Positions 2 through 47,723 of a stretch of DNA of 64,000 nucleotides are shown in pieces. Source of the stretch: Lentisphaeraceae bacterium (GTDB lineage: Bacteria; Verrucomicrobiota; Kiritimatiellia; RFP12; UBA1067). The position numbers and the translations under genes were made by a program. Within the stretch, counting starts at the first letter, position 1. Every line of letters starts with the position of its first letter. The stretch covers positions 2,757 to 66,756 of the forward strand of contig SFPL01000025.1 of the NCBI GenBank assembly GCA_004551905.1. The letters are read 5' to 3'. A model generated the notes under the pieces. That model did no database searches. It saw only the letters and a list, made by a program, of their open reading frames with translations, and was not told where the DNA came from.

Positions 2-1615
2 CGCCCAAATTGGGTCGCGCGCCTCACTGGCCGCTACACCTATGCGTCCGCCACAGCAAGCGACTATGCGTCCGGCACCAAGACGCCGATCACCCCGTTT
101 CTCTACTGTACGTCCAACAAATGGTACTGGTACGATTCGATGGACGTCGACAGCCCCTACCAGTACGTCTACATCTCGCCGGATAGCGGCAGCATCGGCG
201 AGATGGAGATATACGGCTGGACCGCCGCGGACATCGCTGCGGCGGCCGATCCGTTTTTCCCGACGGAGCTGACTGCGGTCAACGGCGACACCGACGGCAA
301 GGTCGAGCTTGCCTGGCGCGGCGGCCTCAATCTTGACTCCTATTCCGTCCAGTACCGCCAGCAGGGTTACGAGGGATGGACGACTGCCGCGGACGGGCTG
401 ACCGCGGATGTGGAGTCCTACGAGCTGAGCGGGTTCGAGATGAACACCACCTACGAGTTCCGCGTACTCGGCCACGCCGGCGCCGAGAGCGGATCGTCGC
501 CGATGGCGAGCGTCTACGTCTACCAGCTCGTCCCCGGGACTGGCACCGGGCTCAACACGCTGCTCTATGGGCCGATCGCATCCCGCCATCTCGGCCAGCG
601 GTTCTGTTTCGAGCAGCGCCTTTCGCCGACGGTGGACGTCCATCAGGCGAGCGGATCGTTTTTCTCGTCCACCAATCTCACTTCGGCGATGGTAATCTAC
701 CGCGGCAAGATAATCCTTCCGCTCACCGGCTCCTACACCTTCACCGCCGTCGTGGAGGGTTCCGACGGCTCGGCGCTCTACATCGACGGCAGCGAGGGCT
801 TCAACGCCTTCAGCGGGGCGTCGCTCAAGAAGACCACGAGGACGCTTGCCGCGGGCGACCACGACATCGAGCTCATCTACCGCAGCGTCAACACCAAGAA
901 GTCGTTCACATTCACCTGGGCGCTCGAAGGCGTGTGGGACGACCGCCCGGTGCCGATGAGCCAGCTGAAGCCCGCGGCGAATTCGGAGATGAACCTCCCC
1001 GACGAGAACGCCACCTACGACGGCTGGGACTTTGCGCCGGCGATCGGTTCGGCGAGCTACATTCCGCGTTTCTGGCGGCTCGGCAACGGATCGTTCAGGA
1101 TGACCGGCGAGAAGGCCGACTATGATGGAGCAAGCCCAGAAGATATGCTTGCGCTGCTGACGCGCGGGCTGGACGGACCATTTACCCTTACGGCGGACTT
1201 CCACACGTCTTCCACGGTTGGCCGTCCGAGCCTTTTCGTCTCCAAGTCGGCGACATCGCTTTACGGCAACAGCCTAAGCTACATCTACGGCGACGGACAG
1301 GTGGGCATGAAGGGCGGCCCTGGCGTCGCCGACTGGGGCGGAGTGAGCTGGAAGAGCGCCGGCGGATCGACGCGGCGGCTGCGGGTGAAGCGGCTCAGGG
1401 ACAAGACGATTACGTTCTCCGACATGGACGTCGCCAGCGGCATCTGGGTCACGCGGCTTACGATGCCGCAGGGCGTCTATGACGGCTGGAGTCTCGCCGC
1501 GGACAAGCTCTGGGTAGGGATATCGCTCTTTGGCAACACGTCCCAAAGGTCGGATGTGACCTTTACCAACCTAAAGCTCAGTCTCGAGAACGGCACGGTG
1601 ATATGGCTTAAGTAG
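2..1615 (+). CDS. secreted carbohydrate-binding protein fragment (discoidin-like, Fn3-like and PA14 domains), 5' end outside the window
   Basis: The frame is open from position 2 with no upstream stop, so the CDS is truncated. The PA14-like stretch reads 'YTFTAVVEGSDGSALYIDG...DHDIELIY'. 'GEMEIYGW' resembles the end of an F5/8 discoidin domain, and 'GKVELAWRGG...YRVLG' is Fn3-like. Confidence 0.55.
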   Translation, partial: RPNWVARLTGRYTYASATASDYASGTKTPITPFLYCTSNKWYWYDSMDVDSPYQYVYISPDSGSIGEMEIYGWTAADIAAAADPFFPTELTAVNGDTDGKVELAWRGGLNLDSYSVQYRQQGYEGWTTAADGLTADVESYELSGFEMNTTYEFRVLGHAGAESGSSPMASVYVYQLVPGTGTGLNTLLYGPIASRHLGQRFCFEQRLSPTVDVHQASGSFFSSTNLTSAMVIYRGKIILPLTGSYTFTAVVEGSDGSALYIDGSEGFNAFSGASLKKTTRTLAAGDHDIELIYRSVNTKKSFTFTWALEGVWDDRPVPMSQLKPAANSEMNLPDENATYDGWDFAPAIGSASYIPRFWRLGNGSFRMTGEKADYDGASPEDMLALLTRGLDGPFTLTADFHTSSTVGRPSLFVSKSATSLYGNSLSYIYGDGQVGMKGGPGVADWGGVSWKSAGGSTRRLRVKRLRDKTITFSDMDVASGIWVTRLTMPQGVYDGWSLAADKLWVGISLFGNTSQRSDVTFTNLKLSLENGTVIWLK

Positions 1616-10600: not shown

Positions 10601-13600
10601 CGGAAGGCGACGACCTCTTCACATCCTCCGCGGCGCTGCCGGTCCCGGCGACGCTCGGCGGCAACAAGGTCTACACGTTCCCGGCCGGCTCCTACACGCT
10701 CGTCGCAAAGAGCGACATGACAATCATGCAGGCGCTCGTCGTGGGCGGCGGCGGCGCGGGCGGCGCCTACTGCGGCGGCGGCGGCGGCGGCGGTGCCGTC
10801 CGCTTCGTGGATCGCCCAGTGTTCATCGCCGCGGGCGAGTCGGTTGTCGTTTCCGTCGGCGCGGGCGGCGCGATCGCCTCCGCATCGGGCGGGGCAGGCT
10901 CGAAGGGCGATTCCTCCATCCTCTCCGCCGGAGACCTTGACATCGAGTCGTTCGGCGGCGGCGGCGGCGGCGGCTGGAACTCCACTTCGCCTTCCGGCGG
11001 CGGCTCAATCGCATCTTCAGGCGGAAGCGCCAACATGAACACCGCGGCGCACATCGACGGCTGGAACTACGATTCGAAGAGCGGTTATCTGGGCGGCATC
11101 AGCTACAACGGCTACAACTGCTATACCTACAGGCTGTATGCTCCCGGCGGCGGCGGCGCGGGCGGCCAGGGCGAGAGCACGGCAGGCTCTGAGACAGCGC
11201 TCCACGGCGGCAGGGGGCTGCTCTGCGCCATCTCCGGCACGCCGACGATCTACGGCTCCGGCGGCGGCGGCGGCGGCAAGGGCGGCGGCCACGGCGGCAT
11301 CAACGCCGGCAATGGCGGCACTGGTTCCGCCAACGGCACCGCCGGCGTGGACGGAACCGGCTCCGGCGGCGGCGGCGGAGGCAACGGCACTGACTACTAC
11401 GGCGGCAAGGGCGGCGACGGCACGATCATCCTCTCCATCATCCCCGGCGACCACAGTGCCGCCGCGTTCAAGGTCGAGCTGGACGATTCCGCGCCATATC
11501 TCGGCTCGCCGGTGGAGCCGGAAGTTACGGTCACCCTCGGCGACACGGTCCTCGTGAAGGACGTCGACTACACTGTCACCTACGTGAACAATACCTCGCC
11601 CGGGCAGGGCGCGGCGATTGTCAGCGGCATCGACGGCTCGCCGGCGGAAGGGCTGACGACCACCAGGTCGTTCACCATCGCCCAGGTGATCTTCGCCGAC
11701 TTCACCGCAGCGGGTCTCGCCGACGGCTCTTCCTGGGCCAACGCGATGGCGCCGCAGGCGGCGCTGACCGCGGCGCAGAACGCCTTCCTGGCCAACGGCT
11801 GGGCGGAGGTCTGGTTCAAGGCCGGCAACTATACGATTTCTGCCGCGCTCACGCTCGCGCGCCCCTGCGCCGTACGCGGCGGTTTCCTCGGCGACGACTC
11901 CGACCCCGCCGCCCTCGACCCCTCCAATCCCGAGACGGTGTTCGATGGCCAGGGCATCCCGTCGAAGGCGAGCGCCGTCGCCCAGGCGCTGACCGACTCT
12001 TCGCCCCTTGCCGGTCTTACCAGCACCTACGAGCGCATCGGGTTCGGGAGGTTCAAGTCGCATGGCTTTGTGAAGACCGGTGGCTCGTCCATCAAGTTCA
12101 AGAACTGCCGCTTCTTCAACAACACCTGGGGTGTCGGTGCGGCATCTACCGGCCGCGGGTTCAACCTGACCGGAACCACCCTGGCCACCGCGACTTTTGA
12201 TGGCTGCGAAATCTCCGGCAATGGAGAAAACGCGTCGTATTGCCATGATCCGGGAACTGGTTTTGGCGGATACATTTCAACTTTCAAGCGGGTCATCATC
12301 GACAATTCGTCGTTTGTTACCAACGGCTGGGGAGGGAGCTATCGTACTGCGCAAGGCAGCGCGATCTACGTGACTTCCGCGCCGGTAACCGCCCGTAACA
12401 CGAAGTTCGTGGCGAACTCGATCAAGCATCCAGGAAACGGCGGCACGGTGAACCTCGTGAATGCGAGCGGCGGGTCGGCGTTCACGAACTGCCTGTGGCT
12501 CGCGAACGGCAACAACTGGTACGGCGCCTTCGGCAACGGCGGCCACTCCGGTGCGCTCTACGTTAATCTTTCGTCCAAGGCCGACACGGTCGATCTCGAC
12601 CACTGCACGTTCGCCTACAACATCGAAGGGTCAATGGATAAATACGATAAAGGCATGCAGTATCCCGCTCCGGCCGGACTGTACGTCTACTGCGGCTCGG
12701 CCAAGGTGCGCAATTCGATCTTCTGGGGCAACTCCATCTCGAGCGACAACACCGCGGCGGCCGACGTCTACCTGCACAGCAACGGCAGCGCGGACATCGA
12801 CTACACGCTGTTCGGAGGACTGGGCAAGGACTACATCAACTCCTATTCCGGCGGCAGGATGGTCCTGGGCGACCACATCGTCGTGGGCGACCCGAACTTC
12901 GTCACCCGTCCGGAAACCGTGGCGACATACATGAACAAGCCGACTGAGTTCGCCATACCGCGGTCCAAAACCTCGGCCGCCGGCTTCTTCTACTCGTACA
13001 CGGCGTCCCTGCGGCTTGGCATCGCATCGTTCGACGTCCACATCGCAGCTGGTTCGGAGACCTATTCTCCCGCGATCGACGGCTCGATTGCCTCGTGGCC
13101 GGTCGGCGACGAGCCGCTGCCCAACGGCGGCATTGCCAACCTCGGCTTCTACGGGACGACGGCGGAGGCGGCGACCTCCCTGCTCGGTGTGCCGTCTGTC
13201 GACGGCGACATCGACGTGTCCTTCCCGGACGACGAGCCTGCCCCGGAGGTGTCGTTCGTCCTTGGCGGCGACGGGACGCCCTACAACGCGAAGGTCACGG
13301 TGTCCGCCGGAACCGGTTCCGCCGCGGCGGCGGGAGAATCGTACCAGTGGACGCGTGATTTCATCGGCCTGCAGCCGGGCGACGTCGTAAAAGCGCTGAG
13401 CGGCTACATGTTCACTCCCGGCGACACGCTCTACGTGAAGGTCACGATTTCCACGCCCGGAAACGCGGACGTGGTCTACACCACCACCGCCCAGGTCGCG
13501 GGCGAGGTTCCGGTCTGGTACGGCCACGGCGGCGACCCCGCCAAGGTGGTCCATGTCCGCAGCGGATCGACCGCGCACAATCCTGCCGGAACAAGCTGGG

Positions 13601-16600
13601 CGGACGCGTTCCCCGATCTTGAAAGCGCATATCAGAAGCTCACTTCCGAGCGGAACGAGATCTGGGTCGCCGGCGACATTGTCCACACCAAGGAGCCCAC
13701 GTACTTCTACTGCAACGTCGCCACCACGGTCCGCGGCGGATTTACCGGCGCCGAGGACTCGCTCGAAGAACGTCCTGTGGACACGGTGTCGACCATCGAC
13801 GGACAGATGCTGTACAACTGCCTGCGGCCCGCCAACTTGAGCACTTTGACATTAGAGCGCCTGAGGTTCAAGAACGGCTACGGCTACGGCATCAACCGGC
13901 CTGAGTGCAATGGCGATCTCGTCGTGGAGGACTGCGACTTCATCTGCAACGGCGCCACCAACAACACCAACCTTGCCGGCTGCGCAATCAGGTTCATCCG
14001 CGCCAGCAACAGCGCCTACCCGACCAGGAACCTGACTGTCCGGCGCTGCCGGTTCGAGGGCAACGGCCGCCGGTACCATGGCAACGGCCAGCTCGACGGC
14101 GCGTGCATCTACATCAACAACGCCGCGTCGTTGACGGTGGAGGACTCCCTCTTCATCACCAACGGCGCCCCATTCTCGCTCTCCAGCTCGTCCAGCGCAG
14201 CTGTGCGGCCGGCGGGCACGTGCATCTACGCCGACGCCACTCCAGTTACGGTGACCGGCTGCCGCTTCGCCGGCAACCGCTCCAGCTCCGGCACCGACGG
14301 CACGGCGACCTACGGCGGCCTCATCTACCTGCTCAACGCCTGCGAGGGCAGCGTCATCCGCAACTGCGCTTTCGTCGCCAACGAGTGCGTTACCAGGACG
14401 GCGACGGCGTCCAAGGCGGGTGCGCTCGGCGGCTCTATCGTGGTCAACTTCGCCGAGGCCATCCGCGAGATGTTCATCGAGAGCTGCACCTTCGCCTGGA
14501 ACCTCTCGGCGGGGTATTCCTTCCCGGCCGACGTCTCCGTCAACAAGGGTGTCGCCAACGTCCACAACTGCATCTTCTCCGGCGGACAGCTGGGCCCGGG
14601 CATTGCCGCCGACACCGGCCGCTACTTCAAGATCGGCTCCAGCGGCTCGCTCAACATCGACTACTCGATGTTCGACTGCGATCTCAAGACGGCCATCGGC
14701 GGCAGCGGCAAGATTGTCATCGCGCCTTCCTGCATCACCAACGCCAATCCGCGCTTCGTGACTTCGTCCCCCGAACTGACGCTCAGGAACCCAGAGAATT
14801 TCTACGCCGCCTACGACGCCGGCGTGGAGAGCGTCGCGGCGACTTGCGACGTGCACCTCGTCTCCGCGGTGGGCTATGTGGACAACGACGGCGTCTTCCA
14901 CACTGGCGGCAACGTCGTCTCGCCCGCCATCGACGCCGGTGACCCGGCGGACGACTGCTCGCTCGAGCCGCATCCAAACGGCGGCTTCATCAACCTCGGC
15001 GCCTACGGCAACACCGTCGAGGCCTCGCGCACCTACAGCGTGGAGCCGGAGATCGTGGACAACCTCGTAACTGTCACCTTCCCCGACGACACCTCGTTCC
15101 CGAAGGTCGATTTCGACCTCAAGGCCGCCGCGCTCGACTACACCGCCACGGTGAAGGTGTTCTGCGGGACGAACGGCTTCGACTCCGCGTCCTTCGAGTC
15201 GCCCGCCATGCCAATCCGCGGCGGCGAGCACTTCACGTATCTCCAGGGGGTGGAGCCGTACGTCAGCGGCAGCACGCTCTACGTGAGAGTGCTTGTCACA
15301 TCAGGAGACCATGTGCTGACTAACGATACCGCCATAACTGTGACTGGTGAGATGCCTTCGTGGTGGGGCAAGGGCGGCGGCAAGGGCGTGATCCACGTCT
15401 GGGCCGGCGCTCCCGGCGCGAACGACGGCTCGTGCTGGCGCGACGCATTCACCGACATCAACTCGGCCATTGCGGCGGTCGACGCTACCACCAAGGAGAT
15501 CTGGATCTCCGGCGACTGGCGTCTCAATAACCGCTCGTTCACCGTCACCCCCTCGCGCAGCATCGCCGTCCGCGGCGGTTTCGCGGCGGTCGAGAACACG
15601 CCGAAGGAGCGTCCCGCGAACACGGTTTCGGTCATCGACGGCAACAACTCCTACAACCCGATGGTTATCAACAACGGCGCGGGCGTCGCCGCCGAGGTGG
15701 ACCGGCTCGTCCTCTACAACGCCTACGACCGCGGTCTCGCCAAGACTGGCGGCGGCGACCTCTCCGTAATCAGCTGCACCTTCCTCACCAACGGCCAGAA
15801 CGGTACCAACGGCGACGCCAACGGCAAGGGCATGCGGGTCTCGTCGGCAGCAGGAGCTCGCATATTCGTAACAAACTCGCTCTTTATGGGCAACATGCTC
15901 ATTCATGAATCCTTCAACAAATCTACTGGTCAAGGTAACGGCTCAGGCATTTACATTGATTCTGGCGCATCGCTTACGGTTGTTGATTGCCGTTTCAATG
16001 GAAATGGGCATCCTTCTGTTACTCCTTCCACGAACCATTCCGCAAATCCGAGGGCGGGTGCATTCTATGGTGGCGCGATTTACTCTGCCGTGCCGACGCA
16101 CCTCAGCTACTCGCGCTTCTGCGGCAACCGCGTAATCCATAGCTACAACAACAACGCCTATTCCGGCGGCGGCACCGTCTTCCTCGCCGGCGCGGCCGGC
16201 GGCTCGACGGTGAAAAACTGCCTGTTCGCCGCCAACCAGGACACCCAGAACTGGTCTGGCACCAGTTTGCCCGTCACCAAGCAGGGCGGTGCGCTGGTCG
16301 TGTCCCTCGACAGCGCCGCCGGCACGGTGGAGATCGAGAACAGCACTTTCGCCTACAACCTCTGCGACGGCAAGTACTGCGCGGCGGGCCTGACGGTCGT
16401 GACGGGCTCGGCGAGCGTCAAGAACTGCGTGTTCGGCGGCAACATGATCGGCGCGAACGCGTCCGACAAGGCGGTCGATATCAACGTCCGCAGCGGCAGC
16501 TCGTGCATCGTCACCTACACGCTGCTCTCCGAGAGCGGCGCGCTGCGTCCGACCGATGTCGCGACGACAGCCGAGGCCGGCGGTACGCTCGAGCTCGGGT

Positions 16601-18849
16601 CGGGGGTGATCTACGGCGATCCGCTCTTCGTCACTCCGATCGCTTCGATCACCAACCTCGTCTACAACTTCGACGGCTCGGTGCAGAAGATCATGTACTT
16701 CAATCCTTCCAGCAAGCCCGACTGGATGATGCAGAACGTCGACGCCCACGTCCTCTCCGAGTCCGGCTACTTCACCAACGACGGCGAGGAGCACGAGGCC
16801 GAGGCTGGCGTCCTCTCGCCGGCGATCGACACTGGCGATCCCTTCGACCCTCTCCGCGACGAGTATGACGCGCCGGAGAACCGCGCCATCAACCAGGGCG
16901 CCTACGGCGGCACCAGGTGGGCGTCGAAGTCCGCGTCCGGCCACGCCGAGGTCGACGGCAATGTGCTGATCACGTTCCCGACCGAGTTCACGCAGCCGCA
17001 GGTGGAGTTCACCGTGGGCGGCGAGGGCACCTTCATTGCCAGCGCCACCATATACCTCTCCTCCAACGGCGGATCGACCTGGGACTACGTCTCCGAAACG
17101 ATCGGCAACCTCGTGCTCGGTCAGACCGTCACCCAACGTGTGCCGCTTGTGTACGAGCCGGGTACGGTGCTGACGGCCAAGGTCGTGCTGGTCGCCAACG
17201 GGATGGACGCCGTCGCGACTTCGCAGGGGACCAGGGCGGAAGGCGAGCTGCCTCCGTGGTTCGGCCATGGCGGCGATCCGGCCAAGGTGGTGCACGTACG
17301 CGAGGGCGCGTTCGGCGCTGGCAACGGCTCGAGCTGGGCCGACGCGGCGACCTCGCTCCACGAGGGCCTGCGGCTCCTGACTGCCGAGCGGAACGAACTT
17401 TGGTTTGCGGGCACGAATGTTGTCGCAGGAGCCTCGCCGTCGTATAATTTCGACTTCCCAGTCCTCATTCGCGGCGGTTTTGATTCGACGGAAGATTCTA
17501 TCGAAGAGCGCAAAGATGGAGTGAAGTCGCTTTTGACGGCGAACTACCTTTTCGATAATCTGAATCTGGCCAACTCGCAGAGCGTGTACATCGAGCGCAT
17601 AATCTTCAGCAAGGGCCAGACGAGGAACTTCATCCGCAACGGCGGAGCCGGCGACCTCGCGTTCAGCGAGTGCGAGTTCGTGGACGGCCGCTCCAACTAC
17701 ACCGGCGCAGGCGGCTACTTCACGGGCTCGTCCGGGAAGACGGCCAATCTCGCGTTCACCAACTGCGTGTTCCGCAACAACCGGTTTTACTACGGCGTCG
17801 GCTACGAATATGGTCAGTCCGGCTCGAAGGCGGCGTACTTCGCGAATTTCGCGAGCGTCACCATCGAAGGCTGCCTCTTCGTGGACAACGGCACTGGATT
17901 CGACTCGGTGGCGCCTCTCGCCAACGCCAAGGCCGCCGTCTTCGAGGCGACCGGCTGCCGTCTGAACGTTGTCAACACGCGCTTCGTGGCGAACAGCGAC
18001 TTCGTAAGGAACGTCGGCGGGTTCATCTCGCTCCAGACCGGCACCGGCGGCTCCGTGTTCCGCAACTGCGTGTTCGCGGGCAACATCAACGCAAATGACA
18101 ACACGTACGGCGTCAGCGCCGGCAGCGAGTGCTCGATGGGCGGCATAATCTACGTGACGGGCAACTTCGAGGAGAGGCCCGAGATCACGATCGACCACTG
18201 CACCTTCGCGTACAACCCCGCGGGATCCTACGGCTGCCCGGCAGCCATCTACGTGCAGCGCGGAATCGTGAACGTCTCGAACTCGATCTTCCACGCGAAC
18301 ATGCTCAGCAGGGAGAACATTTGCCCGGCCGACATCTACGTGAGGTACGAGAACGACGATCCGCTTGGCGCGCAGTGCCACGTCTCCTACTCGATGTTCG
18401 ACGACCTGGGGACGAATAATATCCGCGCCGTTTCCGGAGGAATAATTACTACGAACAATGTTTATGTCGCCGATCCTCTGTTGGTGACAACGATGGACGA
18501 CCTGCTGGCATGTCTGCCCGCGTGCACCGTCTCGGGCGCGCGGCTCTCCCTCGACCGCAAAAATCTGCGCTTCGTCAACAACGCGGCGACGCTGGAAAGA
18601 CTGGAGTCGTTCAACATGCACCTCAGGAGCCGCGCGGGCTGGTACGACGAGCGCACGGGCGAGTGGTGCAGCACCTCCGGCGCGCCCTCGCCGGCGATTG
18701 ACGCCGGCGACCCGGCGGCGGACTACTCGAAGGAGCCGAACCGCGCCGGAGTGGGCTTCCCCGGCCGCCGCGTCAACCTCGGCGCATACGGCAACACGCC
18801 CTGGGCGTCGATGACTCCGCATCCCGGCAACCTGTTCATTCTGAGGTAG
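4603..18849 (+). CDS. giant secreted multidomain protein (about 4750 aa): signal peptide, Ig-like repeats, 4 LamG-like modules, glycine-rich domain, 4 tandem pectate-lyase-fold beta-helix modules with choice-of-anchor-Q-like C-terminal motifs
   Basis: The SD 'aaggag' precedes the ATG at 4603; an alternative in-frame ATG is at 4588. The signal peptide is 'MKQAMKLVVSIACAVLGAATALAVA'. Ig-like repeats have the form 'P.VVV...L..G..Y.VSY..N...G...V.G.G.Y.G'. LamG-like motifs are 'VRVYSRNLDETERAFNRALDVIRY', 'IRMYDRTLEPVEVAFNAALDQIRF', 'VRLYGRELSATEVAFNAAIDKVRY' and 'VRIYNRVLTPAEMRYNGAVDRARF', at about 7240, 8270, 9250 and 10220. The glycine-rich region, 'LVVGGGGAGGAYCGGGGGGGAV...VGAGGA', spans about 10700-11450. 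The beta-helix modules begin with caps like 'WYGHGGDPAKVVHVR' at about 13510, 15360 and 17260. Each module ends 'SPAIDAGDP...NLGAYGNT'. Confidence 0.9.
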   Translation: MKQAMKLVVSIACAVLGAATALAVADTTFYIPSIPETAARPGEPAMPVVEVYDNSTHELLSEASDYTISYTNNTQNGVGQVVVSGLGNYAAVTNTFDFNVYVSYPVLAGMTPLRYVEITGTQFYHTGLRPSDHQIEVEFMTITYVDNGYIFGTEASNAWNYPHFSECNHNYCWGYAGSQGTSSGKKSTDTGKLHRLIYNRVGDHAIVLDGTVLASGNNCATTANVHIGRRSGSTNYKGRIYSFRATDRATGEVVVDMVPAKSADGVIGFFDRVTGRFIGPSGSSTSSVLGPEAPFSDFSVSPVPVQHDWSGGAGRPSTGATPALVVSNLTAGVELEQGVHYTVSYSDNVSNGVASAHITGIGDYSGQHDTVLFRVFNSIYEKYRPLEYLESTACAPWIGIDYIHKTSTRTEMVSCIDSSKLRLANYQASFGSRRGGAANESFNFFFKFNGQNRPAWTRNAETQGSDNSYPYDEWVTLECGLDSGLKATWTGETSGKTGSLTSSKNVAGSVPFALFCLNNYNGYGYNYTGDSPAAMKLKSFKIYEDDALVHDYVPARRISDGTLGVYDVIDDQFFSNRGSGSFTAGPEASKLQIAAAIPDQSIVGGAPAEPAVVVTDATTGETLEEGVHYSVSYSGNDTPGTGRVILTGLGAYAGEIGGKDFKTYDGGPATPYPNLSRSYVPDGLIGFWDGIDNSGTGTHDPAAATWVDLSGLGYHGTMNGIATWANGNAMHNEADGHPCVLPAAFSSNWNWHDVTVEFAFRPSELAATRAIFSNYSGASPWGTIISHNNGTTYTDGSIRLYNRDTGGAGDTKIASVVKAGERAYFTILSEYNYMFAFRDSATDVPVNSGSVYGRKVSTSAFEIGGQPDNAAYGMRGDIHFVRVYSRNLDETERAFNRALDVIRYENKSLKYVLPAELPDGYEYDAARDVLRVKIGANAIHTKGLVSINGATAAKMPETFVDIGSTVTLEYSGDGFLGWTNLPSVYTYPGTPTSGRVTFTAAAPVRAVALSSARSAAESELTPYSYVQKGIVRLWDGIDNVGTGVHENTNRWIDLAGSGAQWILRENYGSFAAKALALAGTNKDSAYSEDPVPGYLSVEFCVRKTSGRNLFSNRDDMSRIFILDNDGAFGAYRWHDGSANCQRACQYGYSPLLLEAGNDVTLSAVYANLLSPMKMPDLVYYCNGRRAPYGKSPANFWGQGDYPALGSRYNNNDNVVNGLLYSIRMYDRTLEPVEVAFNAALDQIRFFGADEAATFANMTLPDGYRWNSTESRLEVRLDLRTVRGASSVASGTWFPVGEEVEVVFTPSRPGSPVRWLGLPLKSTLSADKTTLSYTAAAPASVTVMAEQELPALAYVPNGLVALYDAKENVAPGVHSGTTLEWHDLTGRNRQPWTLVRGRASFLDDALEVGGHLAWAGYCPIHQENLLPDWQSVEANITPFRTNGAMLVVFDRNVSRILAVNADPGSRFFCGNKSSKASCATDPAVAGFANDTYSSVYADGGTAPSAFYLGGREITARTVASVDWSTDNDYPSLGGRYNSGDGRYLGLFHVVRLYGRELSATEVAFNAAIDKVRYQGASLPDVLPATLPEGYRYNPAAAALEVNIRAFAAEGSLAVNGGSETNVWVEVGGEVAITATPGAGRGVRDWTGLPGDATISADARTVTFRAASPVEAAVEFANTTAATPASAYNTDGLLAAWDALDANFTSDGWAASGEMPKRTNCLALDGENYIHSTVAGVKSALMEKALTVQMFLRPRNFRWSGGYIHIGTGADVRDLLLSMQGDRSMKSWRGAFGALQYAATSSMNLSYSGIAKPTAEYFGRDTLVSIVRDAEGAKLAIDDGDFCVTNTAYSSIPTTDLVNIGKWIGKKAAEFDLYAVRIYNRVLTPAEMRYNGAVDRARFLGEALELPEGYTNDAGAVKVRYTVTVTDGSGLVSLNGGTPAASIDEWVEKGTAARFVFTPASGYALDAWEGFPDTATYGSGGAVVSLKASSPLAISVSGLELSEGDDLFTSSAALPVPATLGGNKVYTFPAGSYTLVAKSDMTIMQALVVGGGGAGGAYCGGGGGGGAVRFVDRPVFIAAGESVVVSVGAGGAIASASGGAGSKGDSSILSAGDLDIESFGGGGGGGWNSTSPSGGGSIASSGGSANMNTAAHIDGWNYDSKSGYLGGISYNGYNCYTYRLYAPGGGGAGGQGESTAGSETALHGGRGLLCAISGTPTIYGSGGGGGGKGGGHGGINAGNGGTGSANGTAGVDGTGSGGGGGGNGTDYYGGKGGDGTIILSIIPGDHSAAAFKVELDDSAPYLGSPVEPEVTVTLGDTVLVKDVDYTVTYVNNTSPGQGAAIVSGIDGSPAEGLTTTRSFTIAQVIFADFTAAGLADGSSWANAMAPQAALTAAQNAFLANGWAEVWFKAGNYTISAALTLARPCAVRGGFLGDDSDPAALDPSNPETVFDGQGIPSKASAVAQALTDSSPLAGLTSTYERIGFGRFKSHGFVKTGGSSIKFKNCRFFNNTWGVGAASTGRGFNLTGTTLATATFDGCEISGNGENASYCHDPGTGFGGYISTFKRVIIDNSSFVTNGWGGSYRTAQGSAIYVTSAPVTARNTKFVANSIKHPGNGGTVNLVNASGGSAFTNCLWLANGNNWYGAFGNGGHSGALYVNLSSKADTVDLDHCTFAYNIEGSMDKYDKGMQYPAPAGLYVYCGSAKVRNSIFWGNSISSDNTAAADVYLHSNGSADIDYTLFGGLGKDYINSYSGGRMVLGDHIVVGDPNFVTRPETVATYMNKPTEFAIPRSKTSAAGFFYSYTASLRLGIASFDVHIAAGSETYSPAIDGSIASWPVGDEPLPNGGIANLGFYGTTAEAATSLLGVPSVDGDIDVSFPDDEPAPEVSFVLGGDGTPYNAKVTVSAGTGSAAAAGESYQWTRDFIGLQPGDVVKALSGYMFTPGDTLYVKVTISTPGNADVVYTTTAQVAGEVPVWYGHGGDPAKVVHVRSGSTAHNPAGTSWADAFPDLESAYQKLTSERNEIWVAGDIVHTKEPTYFYCNVATTVRGGFTGAEDSLEERPVDTVSTIDGQMLYNCLRPANLSTLTLERLRFKNGYGYGINRPECNGDLVVEDCDFICNGATNNTNLAGCAIRFIRASNSAYPTRNLTVRRCRFEGNGRRYHGNGQLDGACIYINNAASLTVEDSLFITNGAPFSLSSSSSAAVRPAGTCIYADATPVTVTGCRFAGNRSSSGTDGTATYGGLIYLLNACEGSVIRNCAFVANECVTRTATASKAGALGGSIVVNFAEAIREMFIESCTFAWNLSAGYSFPADVSVNKGVANVHNCIFSGGQLGPGIAADTGRYFKIGSSGSLNIDYSMFDCDLKTAIGGSGKIVIAPSCITNANPRFVTSSPELTLRNPENFYAAYDAGVESVAATCDVHLVSAVGYVDNDGVFHTGGNVVSPAIDAGDPADDCSLEPHPNGGFINLGAYGNTVEASRTYSVEPEIVDNLVTVTFPDDTSFPKVDFDLKAAALDYTATVKVFCGTNGFDSASFESPAMPIRGGEHFTYLQGVEPYVSGSTLYVRVLVTSGDHVLTNDTAITVTGEMPSWWGKGGGKGVIHVWAGAPGANDGSCWRDAFTDINSAIAAVDATTKEIWISGDWRLNNRSFTVTPSRSIAVRGGFAAVENTPKERPANTVSVIDGNNSYNPMVINNGAGVAAEVDRLVLYNAYDRGLAKTGGGDLSVISCTFLTNGQNGTNGDANGKGMRVSSAAGARIFVTNSLFMGNMLIHESFNKSTGQGNGSGIYIDSGASLTVVDCRFNGNGHPSVTPSTNHSANPRAGAFYGGAIYSAVPTHLSYSRFCGNRVIHSYNNNAYSGGGTVFLAGAAGGSTVKNCLFAANQDTQNWSGTSLPVTKQGGALVVSLDSAAGTVEIENSTFAYNLCDGKYCAAGLTVVTGSASVKNCVFGGNMIGANASDKAVDINVRSGSSCIVTYTLLSESGALRPTDVATTAEAGGTLELGSGVIYGDPLFVTPIASITNLVYNFDGSVQKIMYFNPSSKPDWMMQNVDAHVLSESGYFTNDGEEHEAEAGVLSPAIDTGDPFDPLRDEYDAPENRAINQGAYGGTRWASKSASGHAEVDGNVLITFPTEFTQPQVEFTVGGEGTFIASATIYLSSNGGSTWDYVSETIGNLVLGQTVTQRVPLVYEPGTVLTAKVVLVANGMDAVATSQGTRAEGELPPWFGHGGDPAKVVHVREGAFGAGNGSSWADAATSLHEGLRLLTAERNELWFAGTNVVAGASPSYNFDFPVLIRGGFDSTEDSIEERKDGVKSLLTANYLFDNLNLANSQSVYIERIIFSKGQTRNFIRNGGAGDLAFSECEFVDGRSNYTGAGGYFTGSSGKTANLAFTNCVFRNNRFYYGVGYEYGQSGSKAAYFANFASVTIEGCLFVDNGTGFDSVAPLANAKAAVFEATGCRLNVVNTRFVANSDFVRNVGGFISLQTGTGGSVFRNCVFAGNINANDNTYGVSAGSECSMGGIIYVTGNFEERPEITIDHCTFAYNPAGSYGCPAAIYVQRGIVNVSNSIFHANMLSRENICPADIYVRYENDDPLGAQCHVSYSMFDDLGTNNIRAVSGGIITTNNVYVADPLLVTTMDDLLACLPACTVSGARLSLDRKNLRFVNNAATLERLESFNMHLRSRAGWYDERTGEWCSTSGAPSPAIDAGDPAADYSKEPNRAGVGFPGRRVNLGAYGNTPWASMTPHPGNLFILR
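10741..10800 (+). repeat. in-frame (GGC)n trinucleotide tract encoding the paired poly-Gly runs of the glycine-rich domain
   Basis: The sequence is gtgggcggcggcggcgcgggcggcgcctactgcggcggcggcggcggcggcggt. Similar (GGC)5-8 tracts occur at about 10951, 11145, 11262 and 11364, and in the paralog at about 39355, 39880, 40515, 40890, 41005 and 41140. Confidence 0.85.
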
Positions 18850-38962: not shown

Positions 38963-39056
38963 GGAGGGATGGCCGAGTGGCTGAAGGCAACGGTTTGCTA
39001 AATCGTCATACGGACTAATCTTCGTATCGGGGGTTCGAATCCCCCTCCCTCCGCCA
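38963..39056 (+). tRNA. tRNA-Ser (anticodon GCT), type II with long variable arm, CCA encoded
   Basis: The acceptor stem GGAGGGA pairs with TCCCTCC. The D-arm is GCC...GGC. The anticodon loop is T-T-GCT-A-A. The long variable arm is TCATACGGACTAATCTTCGTATCG. The T-arm is GGGGGTTCGAATCCCCC, with discriminator G and CCA. Confidence 0.85.
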
Positions 39057-39072: not shown

Positions 39073-39104
39073 TTGACAGATTCGGTCGGGTATGGTATTA
39101 TAAT
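39073..39104 (+). promoter_or_regulatory. candidate promoter of the second giant-protein gene (TTGACA ... TGGTATTATAAT)
   Basis: TTGACA is at 39073-39078 and the extended -10 TATGGTATTATAAT ends at 39104. The TTGACA spacing of 20 nt is long, so the extended -10 probably dominates. The SD 'aaggggtaaaga' precedes the ATG at 39140. Confidence 0.35.
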
Positions 39105-39139: not shown

Positions 39140-42100
39140 ATGAAGAAACTCGCGTATGGTTTTGCTTTGTCTGCCGCGGTCGCGTTCGGCGCGGCGAATG
39201 CGTGGGCCGACCAGGCGACGAGCTATGTCTCGGTGAGTTCGGGCGATGCGACGATAGTCGACCTTGGCGACCAGTTCGCCGTCGTATTCTCCAATGCGCA
39301 GTCCTCGGCAACGCTGGTCGCGCTTCGGCCCTGCTCGCTCCTGCGTACGCTCGTCGTCGGCGGCGGCGGCGCTGGCGGTCAGTGCATGGGCGGCGGCGGA
39401 GGTGGCGGCCAGGTGCTGGAGTCGTACGATGTCCACATCATTTCGGCGGATGATGAATTTACGCTTTCTGTGGGCGCCGGCGGTGCCAAGGGCACTGGCT
39501 ATAACGCCGGTCTCCAGGGCGGCACTTCGTCGCTAACCTTGCCTGGCGGCACCTCGCTGGTCGCATATGGCGGCGGTGGTGGCGGCGGATACTCCGCCCA
39601 GGCACCGACTGCAAACGCCGACGGCGAGATAGGCGCCGGCGGCGGCAATGGTTTTGGCTACGCGACGGCGCCGACAAAAGGGACTCACTACAACTACGGC
39701 AATCCCGGCGGTCTTGCCCAGGGCGGCGGCGGCGGCGCGGGCGCGGCGGGCGAGAATCCCGGGCTCCACGCCGAGAGCGTGCTCTACGGCGACGAGACCG
39801 CCTATCGCACCCAGGCCGGCTACGGCGGCGAGGGCGTATCGAGCGATATCTCCGGCGTCGCCGAGGTCTATGGCTCCGGCGGCGGCGGCGGCGGCGGCCA
39901 GAATCACTGGTCGCAGGTCCATGCCCCCGGCGGCACCCACGCAGGTGCGGGTGCCGTCCGTACCGACAAGACTGGCGGCGGCGATGGCGTGAAAGAGGCG
40001 CTTCCGGCCGACGAGGGATTTGGCGCTGGCGGCGGCGGCGGCAGCTTCTCTCAGACTGGCAGCAGTGGCCAGGCCCAGGCGACGAAGGGCGGCTGCGGAA
40101 CGGTCATTCTGCGTTTCTCGAAGACGGACCTCACAACACTGTTGTTTGAGGTGGATCCGATCCCCGACCAGTATTTCACCGGTTCGGCGCAGACTCCGGC
40201 AGTGGTGGTCCGTCATATCGACGGCGGCACCGTCGTCGAACCGGCAAACTATGATGTCGTCTACGAGGACAATGTCAATCCCGGCACTGCCAGGGTGACT
40301 GTTGCCGGCAAGGGTGCATACGAAGGAATCCGCGCCTCTGCCAGCTTTGTGATCTTGGACATGGTGAGCGACGAGTACGCGGCGTATGACGACCTTTCAG
40401 TGCGGAGGATAAGAGTCGGCGACCGCATCGTCTACATCTTCACCAACACAACCGATGTCTTCACCTTCAGGGCGCTTGTCAACCTTACGCTCGCCGACGC
40501 GCTCGTCGTGGGCGGCGGCGGCTCGGGCGGCCACACCATCGGCGGCGGCGGAGGAGGCGGGGCGGTCGTCACCTCCACGGTTCAGCGCGTGATGATCGCG
40601 GGCAGGGAATATTTCATAAATGTCGGCGCGGGCGGCCTTCATGCGACCACCGGGGGCTTCGCGTCCGGGGTTCAGGGCGGTACTTCCACATTGACCTTCC
40701 AGGACGCCTCCACATTGGTCGCCTATGGCGGTGGTGGTGGCGGCGGGTACAACAAGGGCCCCACTTCGTCGGCGACAGGCGAGATCGCGTCCGGCGGCGG
40801 CAGTGGCGCCGGTGGAACGTTTTCCGCCGGTGCTGACGGCGTCAACTATTCCTCCGCCTTCGGCAATATCGGCGGAACTGGAACGGGTAACTACGGCGGC
40901 GGTGGCGGCGGCGCGGGAACGGCCGGACAGAACAGTTCCGTTAAAGGCGGAGACGGCGGCGAAGGTATCGTAAGTTCCATCACTGGCATTGCCGAGGTGT
41001 ACGGCTCTGGCGGCGGCGGCGGCGCGCGCAACGAAGGCACTCCTGGCGCAGGCGGAACCAACGCCGGCAGCGGGACGAACGGCGTGCAGATTGGGTTTGC
41101 GCCGTTGATTATGTCAGGCCGCAACGGCTTTGGCGCGGGCGGCGGCGGAGGCGGCTTCAAGAGCGGCGGCGGCTATTACGGCGGCGACGGCGGCTGCGGC
41201 ACCATTATTCTTTCCTTTACTCTCGGCGCCAATGTCGGCCAGCCGACGATCGCCTCGAAGTCGATTACATTCCCTGACGGCATCACCCAGCCCAAAGTGA
41301 CGGTGACGCTGGGAAATTCGCGTTTGGAGTATGGTTTCGCAGCCACCGTCAGGATTGTGCTGCGGGACGGCGACGGCACCGAACTGTGCGCCAGGTCCTT
41401 CGCCGGCGTGGTGGCTGGCAAGCCGGTGGAATGGCCGGCGCCGCTGTGCGTGGAGCCGGGAACGACGGTGACGGCGCACATCGAGGTAACCTGCGACGGC
41501 GCGGACGATGTGTACGGCAGCGTGACGGAAGTCGCCGCTGGCGAGATGTCCCCATATTACGGACGCGGCGGCGGTGCGGGCGTCATCCATGTGCGGCAGG
41601 GCGCGACCGGGCTTAATAACGGCAGCGACTGGTTCAACGCCTACACCGACTTCCGTGCGGCGATAAAGGAGCTGAGTGCGGAGCGCCCCGAGCTCTGGTT
41701 CTCTGGCGACGAGACCAATCCGTTGGTGAAGGCGACAATTTTGCCGCCAGTTGCGGCGGTAATCCGCGGCGGATTCGCGGGCACCGAGAACAGTGCGGCG
41801 GAGCGCGCCGAGGGGGCGATGTCGCTCTGTGACGCGGTCAACAGTGGATACTGCTTCGACTTCGAGAACACGCAGGCGATAACGCTCGACGGCTTCCATC
41901 TCAAGCGCGGAGAGAACCACAACCTCAAAAAGAGCGGGGCTGGCGACATCACAGTCACCAACTGCGTCTCGAGCGATGCCTCTGGAAAGTCGAACGGCCA
42001 CGGAGGCTACTTGATCGGCAGCTCGGAGACGGTGGCGAGGTTTGCCAATGTTCGTTTCTCGAACCTCTTCGGCGGAGAGAGGAACGGCGACAACAAGGGA

Positions 42101-43102
42101 ACTGCGCTCTATCTCGATACGTTTTCGCGGGTGTACATCGACGGCTGCACCTTCTCAACCAATGGCTGTAGCTTCAGCTGCGGCTTCGACAACTCGATGT
42201 ACGAACAGGACGGCGCGGCGCTCTTCGCCAAGAACGCGCCGCTCACCGTGCGCGGCACGCGCTTCCTCGCCAATCGCTCGCAGATACTCAACTATGGCAA
42301 CGTCGAGCGCGGCGGCGTGGTGCGCGTGACCGGCTCGTGCGGCGCGACGGCCTTCACTAACTGCCTCTTCGTCGGCAATGAGGTGGTCCATGGTTATTGG
42401 AGTATTACAGAAATCAAGAGCGATACGGGCGGCATGCTGGCGGCAAGCCCGTCGTCGGGCACGGTGGACATAGTGAACTGCACCTTCGCGATGGGACTTG
42501 CGTCCATAACATACGGTCCAGCGGCGGTGGCGGTGCGCAGCGGCACGGTGAACGTGTTGAACAGCATCTTCTACGGCAACACCAACTGCGCCTGGAACAC
42601 GGCTGGCTTCGATATCCATGTCGCGGCAGGCGCGACGGCGAACATTTCCCACTGCCTCTTCGAGGACGACTCCGCTGGGCGCATTGTCTGCGCCGAAGGC
42701 GGTACGGCCAATCTCGCGACCTCGACCTTCGTTTACGGCAATCCGCTGTTCGTGACGGATACTGCGCCGTCAAGCTTCCTGAGGATGGCGAAGCCGGATA
42801 AAATAGGTGATTCCATCCTCCTCAACGAGAGCAAGATTGGGGAGCTGACGGCGTTCAACGCGCATGTCCGCGGCGGCCTCGGTTACTTCGATGAGAAGAC
42901 GGGCGAGCTGGTGGCGGACTTCAAGTCGCACGGAGCGGTTTCTCCGGCTCAGGACGCCGGGAATCCGGCGGCGATCTTCTATTCCGGCGAGCCGGACTGC
43001 CAGCACGGCTGGCACGGCCGCCGCGGCAACCTCGGCTACTACGGCAACACGCCGTGGGCGACGATGACCCAGCTCCCGGGCTCTCTATACTACATAAGAT
43101 GA
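39140..43102 (+). CDS. secreted 1320-aa paralog of the giant protein: signal peptide, two copies of the glycine-rich domain, Ig-like repeat, one pectate-lyase-fold beta-helix module, and the same C-terminal tail
   Basis: The signal peptide is 'MKKLAYGFALSAAVAFGAANAWA'. Glycine-rich copies 'LVVGGGGAGGQCMGGGGGGGQV...VGAGGA' (about 39350) and 'LVVGGGGSGGHTIGGGGGGGAV...VGAGG' (about 40500) each end '...CGT(I/V)IL(R/S)F'. The Ig-like repeat is 'PAVVVRHIDGGTVVEPANYDVVYEDNVNPGTARVTVAGKGAYEG'. The beta-helix cap is 'YYGRGGGAGVIHVRQGATG...SDWFNAYTDFRAAIKEL'. The end is 'SPAQDAGNPAA...GNLGYYGNTPWATMTQLPGSLYYIR'. Confidence 0.9.
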   Translation: MKKLAYGFALSAAVAFGAANAWADQATSYVSVSSGDATIVDLGDQFAVVFSNAQSSATLVALRPCSLLRTLVVGGGGAGGQCMGGGGGGGQVLESYDVHIISADDEFTLSVGAGGAKGTGYNAGLQGGTSSLTLPGGTSLVAYGGGGGGGYSAQAPTANADGEIGAGGGNGFGYATAPTKGTHYNYGNPGGLAQGGGGGAGAAGENPGLHAESVLYGDETAYRTQAGYGGEGVSSDISGVAEVYGSGGGGGGGQNHWSQVHAPGGTHAGAGAVRTDKTGGGDGVKEALPADEGFGAGGGGGSFSQTGSSGQAQATKGGCGTVILRFSKTDLTTLLFEVDPIPDQYFTGSAQTPAVVVRHIDGGTVVEPANYDVVYEDNVNPGTARVTVAGKGAYEGIRASASFVILDMVSDEYAAYDDLSVRRIRVGDRIVYIFTNTTDVFTFRALVNLTLADALVVGGGGSGGHTIGGGGGGGAVVTSTVQRVMIAGREYFINVGAGGLHATTGGFASGVQGGTSTLTFQDASTLVAYGGGGGGGYNKGPTSSATGEIASGGGSGAGGTFSAGADGVNYSSAFGNIGGTGTGNYGGGGGGAGTAGQNSSVKGGDGGEGIVSSITGIAEVYGSGGGGGARNEGTPGAGGTNAGSGTNGVQIGFAPLIMSGRNGFGAGGGGGGFKSGGGYYGGDGGCGTIILSFTLGANVGQPTIASKSITFPDGITQPKVTVTLGNSRLEYGFAATVRIVLRDGDGTELCARSFAGVVAGKPVEWPAPLCVEPGTTVTAHIEVTCDGADDVYGSVTEVAAGEMSPYYGRGGGAGVIHVRQGATGLNNGSDWFNAYTDFRAAIKELSAERPELWFSGDETNPLVKATILPPVAAVIRGGFAGTENSAAERAEGAMSLCDAVNSGYCFDFENTQAITLDGFHLKRGENHNLKKSGAGDITVTNCVSSDASGKSNGHGGYLIGSSETVARFANVRFSNLFGGERNGDNKGTALYLDTFSRVYIDGCTFSTNGCSFSCGFDNSMYEQDGAALFAKNAPLTVRGTRFLANRSQILNYGNVERGGVVRVTGSCGATAFTNCLFVGNEVVHGYWSITEIKSDTGGMLAASPSSGTVDIVNCTFAMGLASITYGPAAVAVRSGTVNVLNSIFYGNTNCAWNTAGFDIHVAAGATANISHCLFEDDSAGRIVCAEGGTANLATSTFVYGNPLFVTDTAPSSFLRMAKPDKIGDSILLNESKIGELTAFNAHVRGGLGYFDEKTGELVADFKSHGAVSPAQDAGNPAAIFYSGEPDCQHGWHGRRGNLGYYGNTPWATMTQLPGSLYYIR

Positions 43103-47028: not shown

Positions 47029-47723
47029 TGTCTCACCTCATCGAGCTAAGGGACCTCTACAAGATCTACGCGCAGGGCGAGGAGCCGGTGCACGCGCTGG
47101 ACGGCGTGTCGGTCTCGGTCGACGAGGGGGAGTTCGTCGCGATCATGGGCGCGTCCGGCTCGGGCAAGTCGACGATGCTCAACATCCTCGGCTGCCTCGA
47201 CACGCCGACCTCCGGCTCCTACCTGCTCGACGGCATCGAGGTCGCGCGGCGCACGCGGCGCGAGCTCGCTCACATCCGCAACCGCAAGCTCGGGTTCGTC
47301 TTCCAGAACTTCAACCTGCTGCCGCGCACCAGCGCGGTGGAGCAGGTGGAGCTGCCCGACCTCTACATGGGCAGGCTCTCCCGCTCCGCCCGCCGCCTCC
47401 GCGCGCTGGAGCTCCTCGACCGCGTGGGGCTCGGCGGCCGCGCCACCCACAAGCCGTCGGAGCTCTCCGGCGGCCAGCAGCAGCGCGTAGCCATCGCTCG
47501 CGCGCTCATGAACGAACCGCCGGTGCTTTTCGCCGACGAGCCGACTGGCAACCTCGACACCATGGCGTCGGTCGAAATCATGAAGCTCTTCACCGAGCTT
47601 TCCGCCGAGGGGATAACAATCGTGATGGTCACCCACGAGGACGATATCGCAGCCTACGCGAAGCGCCACCTGGTGATGAAGGACGGCAAGCTGGTCCGCG
47701 ACGACCGACGTAATCTTGGATGA
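47028..47723 (+). CDS. ABC transporter ATP-binding protein (MacB/LolD-like ATPase domain only)
   Basis: Walker A is 'GASGSGKST', the signature is '[15 protein letters not shown]' and Walker B is '[11 protein letters not shown]'. At 231 aa it has no FtsX/permease domain, and no permease gene follows. Confidence 0.9.

Follow-up and report, generated by a model that had tools for sequence, protein, structure and literature searches.

The window described here is a 64,000-nucleotide (nt) stretch of contig SFPL01000025.1, from a Lentisphaeraceae bacterium (assembly GCA_004551905.1). It has a G+C content of 66%, and about 35 genes can be picked out in it by codon-position G+C. Two of them encode large modular proteins, here called A and B. 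Protein A consists of a signal peptide, a glycine-rich domain (G1), an immunoglobulin (Ig)-like spacer, a second glycine-rich domain (G2), a beta-sandwich, a right-handed beta-helix and a flexible C-terminal heptapeptide, in that order. The positions of these parts are collected in Table 1.

An earlier account of this DNA, made without database searches and called here the sequence-only reading, described A as a compact, secreted paralog of B. The two proteins do share four module types as well as their C-terminal ending, as seen by BLASTP, by Pfam and other hidden Markov models (HMMs) and by phmmer. The word compact should not be taken to mean that A is derived from B: A has orthologues of its own, about 1310-1330 amino acids (aa) long and 65-89% identical, in other metagenome assemblies.

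Table 1. Positions in the window of proteins A and B, their parts and nearby features.
Feature	Position	Strand	Basis or remark
Gene A, coding sequence, 1320 aa plus stop	39140..43102	+	third-position G+C (GC3) 0.78; identical protein encoded by an independent Logan contig
A, signal peptide, aa 1-23, cleavage between AWA and DQ	39140..39208	+	read from sequence
A, Gly-rich domain 1 (G1), aa 37-335, PF21722 type, with G1-specific insert	39248..40144	+	Pfam, HMM envelope, non-Gly columns
A, Ig-like beta-sandwich spacer, aa 336-408	40145..40363	+	matches four copies in B
A, Gly-rich domain 2 (G2), aa 424-702, predicted TNF-like sandwich plus glycine-rich lattice	40409..41245	+	Pfam, HMM, AlphaFold2 (AF2), Foldseek
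A, pre-helix beta-sandwich, aa 703-800	41246..41539	+	AF2 model residues 1-100, predicted local distance difference test (pLDDT) ~95; FN3/Ig-like fold matches
A, right-handed beta-helix, aa 801-1312, N-cap YYGRGGGAGVIHVR...W..., C-cap/closing motif SPA.DAG.P...NLGYYGNTPWA	41540..43075	+	BLASTP, alignment, AF2, fold search
A, C-terminal tail PGSLYYIR; core heptapeptide G-x5-R, aa 1314-1320	43076..43099	+	pLDDT <50
Promoter-like site of A, sigma-70-like, TTGACA-17-TATTAT, TG upstream (extended -10)	39073..39101	+	11/12 positions; consensus match only
Gene B, coding sequence, 4753 aa	4588..18849	+	open reading frame (ORF), domain searches
B, Gly-rich domain, aa 2021-2293	10648..11466	+	Pfam, HMM envelope
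B, four tandem beta-helix modules, aa 2360-2864, 2868-3482, 3486-4115 and 4119-4743	11665..18816	+	HMM from the modules
B, C-terminal heptapeptide GNLFILR	18826..18846	+	
Promoter-like site of B, extended -10	4377-4405		11/12 positions
Third tail-bearing gene, FN3 + PA14, ends GTVIWLK, 5' end beyond the window	2..1615	+	Pfam; no Gly-rich or helix module
Exosortase, generic, single gene, 281 aa, 4 kb upstream of A	34410-35255		passes subfamily model TIGR02602
tRNA-Ser(GCT)	38963-39056		

Protein A and its relationship to protein B

The N-terminus of A, MKKLAYGFALSAAVAFGAANAWA followed by DQ, reads as a Sec-type signal peptide when judged from the sequence, so that A is probably secreted, as had been proposed. 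The two glycine-rich domains had been placed at about 39350-40140 and 40500-41215. There are two of them, and these coordinates are about right, except that each domain starts about 100 nt earlier. Pfam finds no match in the Ig-like spacer or the pre-helix sandwich of A, and NCBIfam finds no family in A or B at E <= 0.1.

Protein B is built from a larger set of parts. It has a signal peptide, three Ig-like repeats interleaved with two unassigned units, four units of a LamG-like domain plus a sandwich, one glycine-rich domain, another Ig-like repeat, four beta-helix modules and a tail. The C-terminal part of A (A709-1320) aligns by BLASTP with the last helix module and ending of B (B4128-4753) at 35% identity over about 650 columns (E 3e-81), and with B2853-3482 and B3486-4115 at 28-30% identity (E 1e-47 and 1e-44). 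The N-cap, the closing motif and the C-terminal tail are common to A and B, as the sequence-only reading had it. Every helix module of B ends with a G.YG.T motif, and the closing motif therefore belongs to the helix fold; the tail follows the last module only.

The Ig-like repeat is also common to both proteins, another claim that held up. The copy in A matches aa 33-108, 302-383, 596-671 and 2293-2367 of B (phmmer E 6e-4 to 3e-10), and in each protein one Ig-like copy sits directly behind a glycine-rich domain. At the DNA level, 84% identity between the two genes is limited to just two stretches of about 70 nt. The paralogy is therefore old, without recent gene conversion.

The glycine-rich domain

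The glycine-rich domains belong to Pfam family PF21722 (Gly_rich_2), which has a gathering cutoff of 24.3 bits. Protein A scores 79.8 bits over two stretches and protein B 57.0 bits, once; the glycine-rich domain of B taken alone scores 64 bits. Composition-corrected BLAST between A and the B domain alone is weak (E 0.013-0.024). Because this is insufficient by itself, homology was settled by HMMs, by the non-glycine columns and by structure.

The non-glycine comparison counts alignment columns in which neither residue is Gly. Identities are found in 58 of 164 such columns between G1 and G2, 42 of 160 between G1 and the B domain, and 45 of 153 between G2 and the B domain (26-35%), as against about 12 +/- 3 (about 8%) in shuffled controls, and none of 2000 shuffles reaches the observed values. 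Ordered segments also align across the domains, namely VY.F...LVVGGGG, VGAGG, ITG...YGSGGGGG and GT(I/V)IL. The similarity thus extends beyond the glycine runs; had it been restricted to them, the claim of paralogy would have failed.

A model of G2, predicted by AF2 from a 40-sequence alignment, has a pLDDT of 92.8, a predicted template-modelling (TM) score of 0.92 and about 11 beta-strands. The glycine runs have a pLDDT above 90 and are neither helix nor strand by DSSP. Across 40 diverse copies of the domain V34 and Y198 are invariant, and F11, L32, V72, S93, A105, A169 and V266 are nearly so.

Similar structures were sought with Foldseek. In the PDB, the G2 model matches the Pam3 fibre (7ypx, E 3.7e-6, TM 0.47/0.52; 7yfw, E 3e-3), two chains of the Bxb1 tail tip in 9d93 (E 1e-5 for 9d93_Q and 2e-5) and the TNF-like/glycine-rich domain of ALK/LTK (E 2e-3 to 3e-2). 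The BFVD yields 218 viral matches at E <= 1e-3; TM is 0.6-0.75 and identity 27-33% in the best of them. These are mainly phage "glycine-rich domain-containing proteins", together with prasinovirus proteins, and several have PA14, FN3 or ConA-like domains fused to them. Single-sequence searches of the PDB gave nothing real, and a profile search of the PDB gave marginal ALK matches (E 0.05-0.09) among the (GGGGS)n linker artefacts that dominate it. The predicted model thus shows that the glycine-rich domains have the fold of TNF-like plus glycine-rich phage tail-fibre tips and of the ligand-binding domain of ALK/LTK.

The Pam3 protein gp24 consists of an alpha-helical attachment domain, a TNF-like domain and one that is glycine-rich, the last with 12 glycine-rich motifs in a four-layer lattice. 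It has been proposed to recognise host receptors and has been likened to the S16 adhesin gp38 (PMC9942802). A 2026 survey groups Pam3, Bxb1 gp33/gp29, S16 gp38 and ALK as glycine-rich polyproline-II-bundle domains (PMC13243192).

The domain is common. A profile search of 1.84 billion representative proteins returned 21,423 at E <= 1e-3, of which 883 reach E <= 1e-30; a protein may carry as many as 15 copies and be up to 7335 aa long. Up to 15 copies occur in giant low-G+C proteins of viral or protist-like look (P0126, P0132, P0157 and others), and the domain is also found in prasinovirus. It widely crosses the boundary between viruses and cells. Literature searches for PF21722 found nothing specific: the domain is catalogued and widespread, and uncharacterised in function in cellular organisms. 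Protein A is a new, uncharacterised member of this catalogued family.

The beta-sandwich and beta-helix

An AF2 model of A 701-1320, made from a 26-sequence alignment, has a pLDDT of 88.2. It contains a seven-strand sandwich (model residues 1-100), an N-cap, a long right-handed beta-helix and a C-cap. The solenoid has about 35 short strands, with regular periodicity over model residues 195-492. The last eight residues are disordered, with pLDDT below 50.

In the PDB this module has weak fold matches (TM <= 0.2) among beta-helix glycosidases and Ig/FN3 domains, with a GH87 beta-helix at the top. Pfam Beta_helix (PF13229) matches A aa 808-1320 at 22.2 bits (E 1e-4), under its cutoff of 25.9, and a precomputed PF13229 hit exists for several homologues. 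Against the PDB, a profile of the helix finds marginal matches only, to a crAss-like phage tail fibre (E 0.004) and a PL6 alginate lyase (E 0.55).

In an alignment of 26 modules the invariant polar residues are confined to the caps: H117, W131, W153, E183 and R189 on one side and H542, S568-P569 and E584 on the other. Between A2 positions 190 and 500, within the helix, invariance or near-invariance is seen for Gly, Cys, Asn, Thr, Phe and Ala only, and no charged residue shows it. This argues against a catalytic groove shared by the whole family.

Evolution of the family

Among A, B and 120 relatives, the number of modules varies widely. A protein may have 0-4 glycine-rich domains and 0-4 helix modules. 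The glycine-rich domains always come first, and the order of glycine-rich domain, helix and tail is invariant. Many tail-bearing proteins of related loci have helix modules without a glycine-rich domain, and many database relatives have the glycine-rich domain only. Several family genes are found per genome; in the window, no member beyond A and B was found. This evidence supports the view that A and B are old paralogues in a family made by module shuffling and duplication, much as the sequence-only reading had supposed.

The duplication of the glycine-rich domain within A is ancient. G1 and G2 are 43% identical, no closer than G2 and the B copy (44%), and orthologues with an overall identity of 52-53% retain a G1-type copy with its characteristic insert.

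The duplicated glycine-rich domain had also been taken as the functional core of the family, in preference to the beta-helix. This idea is not supported: conservation is equal for the two modules, and either can be found without its counterpart. Mean identity to A over 14 orthologues is 0.80 for G1, 0.82 for G2, 0.74 for the Ig-like spacer, 0.75 for the sandwich and 0.84 for the helix.

The relatives of A come from metagenome-assembled genomes (MAGs) labelled Kiritimatiellae from rumen, yak caecum and sheep rectum. Annotations in these MAGs describe them as "right-handed parallel beta-helix repeat-containing" or "glycine-rich domain-containing".

The C-terminal tail

Protein A ends in ...QLPGSLYYIR and protein B in ...PHPGNLFILR. 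Similar endings are found throughout the family. Of 122 proteins (A, B and the 120 relatives), 92 end in Arg or Lys behind at least four hydrophobic residues, and 89 of these 92 have Gly at position -7. By a looser criterion about 105 of the 122 carry the tail, and the proteins outside the 92 are mostly loose variants or truncated gene calls. Pro is frequent just before the tail. The tail follows whichever domain is last, either the helix C-cap or a glycine-rich domain directly, as in ...CGTVILSVSPINGLMIILK.

The tail is not limited to proteins related to A and B. The ORF at the start of the window (2-1615) has no similarity to either, yet its ending heptapeptide is of the same type. P0248, a homologue 37% identical to it, carries a signal peptide and terminates in GTVIMLR. 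The tail carriers thus number three in the window, and there are at least eight in the sampled loci of each of RUG10963 and RUG10640.

For a wider view, 42 Kiritimatiellae-like loci were fetched and their genes called crudely as ORFs, with signal peptides judged by eye and by a crude script. In these loci and the window, the motif closes 52 of the 317 crudely called genes, where 0.37 would be predicted from the frequency of the pattern inside proteins; the figure of 52 is inflated, because the loci were fetched through tail-bearing proteins. Eight tail-bearing proteins without a helix module are an unbiased by-catch. Their domains include BspA-type leucine-rich repeats (LRR_5), LamG, PKD, InlB-B repeats, a PQQ beta-propeller, PA14 with FN3, a sigma-70 fusion and Gly_rich_2 with PKD. 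Among 37 tail-bearing ORFs whose N-terminus is complete, a crude test of hydrophobicity finds 30 that begin with a signal-peptide-like segment, versus 75 of 327 others. The tail is missing in loci of Planctomycetes and other phyla, some of which have classical PEP-CTERM ORFs instead.

Two further observations concern the carriers. Some proteins have an N-terminal sigma-70 of extracytoplasmic function type (regions 2 and 4) fused to LamG, leucine-rich repeat, glycine-rich or beta-helix parts (L013:14980-18747, P0031, P0059, P0063), and most of these fusions end in the tail or in a variant ending in Q. Tail-bearing beta-helix proteins of Kiritimatiellae type also occur on contigs filed under other taxa (L002 and L021, CAVCXQ01, "Muribaculaceae"; L035, CAVCJC01, "Lachnospira hominis"; L028, CAZCSQ01, "Erysipelotrichaceae"). 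These contigs were probably mis-binned in their MAGs.

Haft has listed eight attributes of small C-terminal sorting signals (10.1101/2023.06.07.544157). When the tail is scored against them, attributes 1, 2, 6, 7 and 8 are present: it lies at the extreme C-terminus, occurs several times per genome, goes with signal peptides, is carried by unrelated proteins and is missing from homologues in other lineages. Attributes 3, 4 and 5 are absent: these call for three or more invariant signature residues, a helix that spans the membrane and 2-5 basic residues in a cluster. Only the Gly at -7 and the terminal Arg or Lys are fixed, and the hydrophobic run has five residues. No conserved partner gene was found near tail-bearing genes in about 0.6 Mb of loci, and literature searches for a Kiritimatiellae C-terminal signal found nothing specific. 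By eye, the tail resembles the prepilin motif G|FTLIE and the last glycine-rich strand (GTVILxF); the idea was set aside.

It is tentatively proposed, with odds a little short of even, that G-[F/L/S/T/M]-x-[L/I/Y]-[I/Y/F]-[V/L]-[R/K]-COOH is an undescribed sorting or retention signal without a transmembrane segment. It would mark the adhesin-like surface proteome of gut and rumen Kiritimatiellae, possibly also of some Lentisphaerae, with A, B and ORF 2-1615 among its clients, and it would be read by machinery other than the classical exosortase/PEP-CTERM system. The tail is the most interesting element of these proteins and the one least supported by direct evidence.

Gene neighbourhood

Housekeeping genes separate A and B. 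They include thiC, thiH, a thiG-like gene, rpoD, and genes for an RRM protein, DJ-1, a ClC channel and a pseudouridine synthase, followed by topA and xerC. After these come one exosortase gene, a GT4 WecA-like transferase gene, nagA, the tRNA-Ser(GCT) gene and then A, so that the exosortase and tRNA genes do precede A as had been read from the sequence. The exosortase scores below every NCBIfam subtype cutoff, and its gene adjoins that of the GT4 transferase.

Downstream of A are genes for a GH29 alpha-L-fucosidase and for TolC/MacA/MacB-like proteins, and farther on for an aldose epimerase, a GH31 enzyme and a GH106 rhamnosidase. With NagA, these enzymes make the surroundings of A a glycan-forager neighbourhood. 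Comparison of synteny, which had been suggested as a check, does not extend this picture: the neighbours of A (nagA, fucosidase, TolC) are conserved on one contig of the same species (L001) only, and not around homologues in other fetched loci.

The TolC-like, MacA-like and MacB/LolD-like ATPase genes lie at 43346-47723 (+), behind A and the fucosidase gene, without an identified permease gene beside that of the ATPase. A role for these genes as a dedicated exporter of A was considered and set aside, on this ground and because the arrangement is not conserved in other fetched loci.

Gene A had been credited with a promoter of its own. A near-consensus promoter-like site does lie ahead of it, identified by consensus match only, and B has an equally good one. 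About 180 nt of leader follow the B site (window 4377-4587), and they contain a 14-bp perfect inverted repeat (4488-4501 / 4518-4531) and then a T-run. The repeat might act as an attenuator or else terminate the upstream gene; a terminator scan made no call there.

Codon use of the surface-protein genes differs from that of their neighbours. GC3 is 0.78 in A, 0.86 in B and 0.84 in the first ORF (140-1615), compared with 0.91-0.96 in the intervening housekeeping genes. Very long antisense ORFs inside B and A, at 4648-7737 (-), 15943-18822 (-) and 41114-42001 (-), were rejected as genes: the coding-frame G+C pattern is absent, and they are frame shadows of high-G+C genes. Elsewhere in the window, the ORF at 27323-30133 (+) has a metallophosphoesterase match at aa 307-542 only, an atypical G+C pattern and a GC3 of 0.78. 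It has probably been called too long.

Proposed function

On balance, the evidence favours A as a Sec-exported, modular binding protein of adhesin-like kind, extracellular or at the cell surface, of a rumen or gut Kiritimatiellae bacterium. From what is generally known of Sec signal peptides, A would be exported to the periplasm and cleaved after AWA. By analogy with phage fibre tips and ALK/LTK, the two N-terminal glycine-rich domains would act as distal ligand-binding heads, for which a glycan or surface molecule of another cell or particle is a candidate ligand. The Ig-like domain and the beta-sandwich may be spacers.

Beside the attachment point, the beta-helix would serve as a rigid stalk or as a shaft that binds glycans without catalysis. 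It is placed there, with the heads distal, because the order of glycine-rich domain, helix and tail is invariant and no catalytic residues are conserved. The four tandem helices in B, together with the fixed order, are more in keeping with a stalk than with an enzyme. The terminal G-(hydrophobic x5)-R/K peptide may be a tag specific to the lineage, by which the protein is directed to the envelope or retained there. Protein B would work in the same way, its three more helices giving it a longer reach and its LamG-like units extra heads of lectin type.

Several points weigh against this proposal. Binding and surface location are argued from analogy of fold, and the role of the tail from its distribution only. 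Many polysaccharide lyases and hydrolases have a beta-helix fold as well, and enzymes (GH87 and an Akkermansia glycosidase) head the PDB matches, at very low TM. Phage fibre tips of this fold are trimers. Proteins of 1320-4753 aa would, in addition, have to cross the outer membrane.

In an alternative view, A is a secreted carbohydrate-active enzyme whose helix is a polysaccharide lyase or glycosidase, targeted by the glycine-rich and Ig-like parts in the manner of carbohydrate-binding modules. This is unlikely, at perhaps one chance in several. Two beta-helix glycosidases, GH87 7c7d (E 2e-4) and Akkermansia 8pvs, give the best fold matches, the marginal profile match to the PL6 lyase points the same way, and A adjoins the GH29 fucosidase gene in a saccharolytic region. 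However, the TM-scores are 0.2 or lower and there is no catalytic family match in Pfam or NCBIfam. Within the helix turns of the 26 modules no Asp, Glu, Lys or Arg is conserved, and four tandem helices in B, with 0-4 in relatives, would be unusual for an enzyme.

It is very unlikely that the tail is a signal of PEP-CTERM type, to be processed by the exosortase whose gene lies 4 kb upstream. The exosortase gene does lie between A and B, and the tail often follows Pro, is hydrophobic and ends in Arg or Lys. All the same, three defining attributes fail, since the shared tail has no PEP motif, only five hydrophobic residues where a stretch of transmembrane length is expected, and a single basic residue in place of an Arg cluster. 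The PEP-CTERM models of NCBIfam match neither A nor B. No further exosortase was found in any other fetched locus, and PEP-CTERM ORFs were absent from the window and from about 0.6 Mb of related Kiritimatiellae loci, occurring only in Planctomycetes loci. A functional tie between A and the exosortase locus is not borne out: the enzyme is a generic exosortase among housekeeping genes.

Protein A is most improbable as the receptor-binding protein of a prophage or tailocin sitting in the chromosome. The glycine-rich fold is commonest in phage tail-fibre proteins and the helix profile marginally matches that of a crAss-like phage, but A has an N-terminal Sec signal peptide, no phage genes were found in the 64-kb window, many paralogues per genome carry a tail specific to a bacterial lineage, and the domain order is reversed relative to phage fibres, with the glycine-rich domain N-terminal. 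Finally, the notion that the glycine-rich resemblance is purely compositional, a matter of low-complexity Gly runs, is refuted: against the weak composition-corrected BLAST values and the linkers that dominate the PDB profile search stand PF21722 scores of two to three times the cutoff, the identity in non-glycine columns, the invariant non-Gly positions in 40 copies and a single ordered predicted fold.

Comparison with known systems

The closest structural counterparts of the proposed binding heads are the receptor-binding fibre tips of cyanophage Pam3 (gp24, 7ypx/7yfw), Salmonella phage S16 (gp38) and mycobacteriophage Bxb1 (tail tip, 9d93), which have the same glycine-rich fold (Foldseek E 4e-6 to 1e-5 for Pam3 7ypx and Bxb1 9d93). 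In these phage tips the glycine-rich part is a polyglycine-II lattice. About 12 glycine-rich motifs can be counted in G2, compared with 12 in Pam3 gp24. The partner domains PA14, FN3 and ConA/LamG recur, and the viral relatives number in the hundreds. Unlike the phage proteins, A is cellular, with a Sec signal peptide and without an N-terminal virion-attachment helix. The domain forms a C-terminal tip in phages, whereas in A it is N-terminal, duplicated and fused to a beta-helix and a lineage-specific tag.

The TG domain of ALK/LTK (7nx4, 7nx1, 7n00, 7lrz) is matched with a Foldseek probability of 0.4-0.9, and it too is an extracellular binding module, as A's heads are thought to be. The TM-score is just about 0.25-0.3, however, and there is no significant sequence similarity. 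The ALK ligands (ALKAL cytokines) have no known bacterial counterpart.

Giant adhesins of the LapA/SiiE/MpIBP type (RTX) are similarly very long; their Ig-like, lectin-like and beta-helix modules stand in tandem, and binding heads and anchor occupy opposite ends. Proteins A and B differ from these in having an N-terminal signal peptide and neither RTX repeats nor an architecture of type I secretion; Pfam and NCBIfam give no HemolysinCabind or RTX match in either. Extracellular giant proteins of the Planctomycetes-Verrucomicrobia-Chlamydiae (PVC) superphylum have CASH beta-helix arrays together with a Sec signal peptide (PMC12057145). The PF21722 head and the C-terminal element set A and B apart from both groups.

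Chlamydial Pmp proteins are beta-helical surface proteins of the same superphylum. The helix turns of A contain, by eye, F..N and GG[AV][ILV]-like motifs, as do those of Pmp proteins. In contrast to Pmp proteins, A has no C-terminal beta-barrel translocator: Pfam and NCBIfam find no such family in A or B and no Pmp match, and A ends eight residues past the helix C-cap.

The tail can be compared with PEP-CTERM/exosortase, LPXTG/sortase, GlyGly-CTERM and MYXO-CTERM signals. Like them, it is found at the extreme C-terminus of many proteins per genome, on unrelated carriers with signal peptides. Those signals are tripartite, while the tail has seven residues, with one invariant Gly (-7), a hydrophobic run of five that is too short to cross a membrane, and a single terminal Arg or Lys.

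Significance

Two features of these proteins are undescribed in the literature searched. One is a domain of phage and ALK type used as the repeated head of giant cellular surface proteins, and the other is a seven-residue C-terminal tag without a transmembrane segment.

If the tail is merely a conserved structural ending, then A and B are ordinary uncharacterised adhesin-like proteins. If it is a sorting tag, the surface proteins of rumen Kiritimatiellae, a group presumed to forage for glycans, could be listed by a simple rule applied to sequence. The tag would also offer a starting point for tracing a new pathway of export or anchoring among diderm PVC bacteria.

Descriptions of the TNF-like plus glycine-rich domain have come mainly from the tips of phage fibres and from human ALK/LTK. 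Here the domain is a recurring head in an uncultured gut lineage, and its wide spread points to a cell-surface recognition tool shared by viruses and bacteria.

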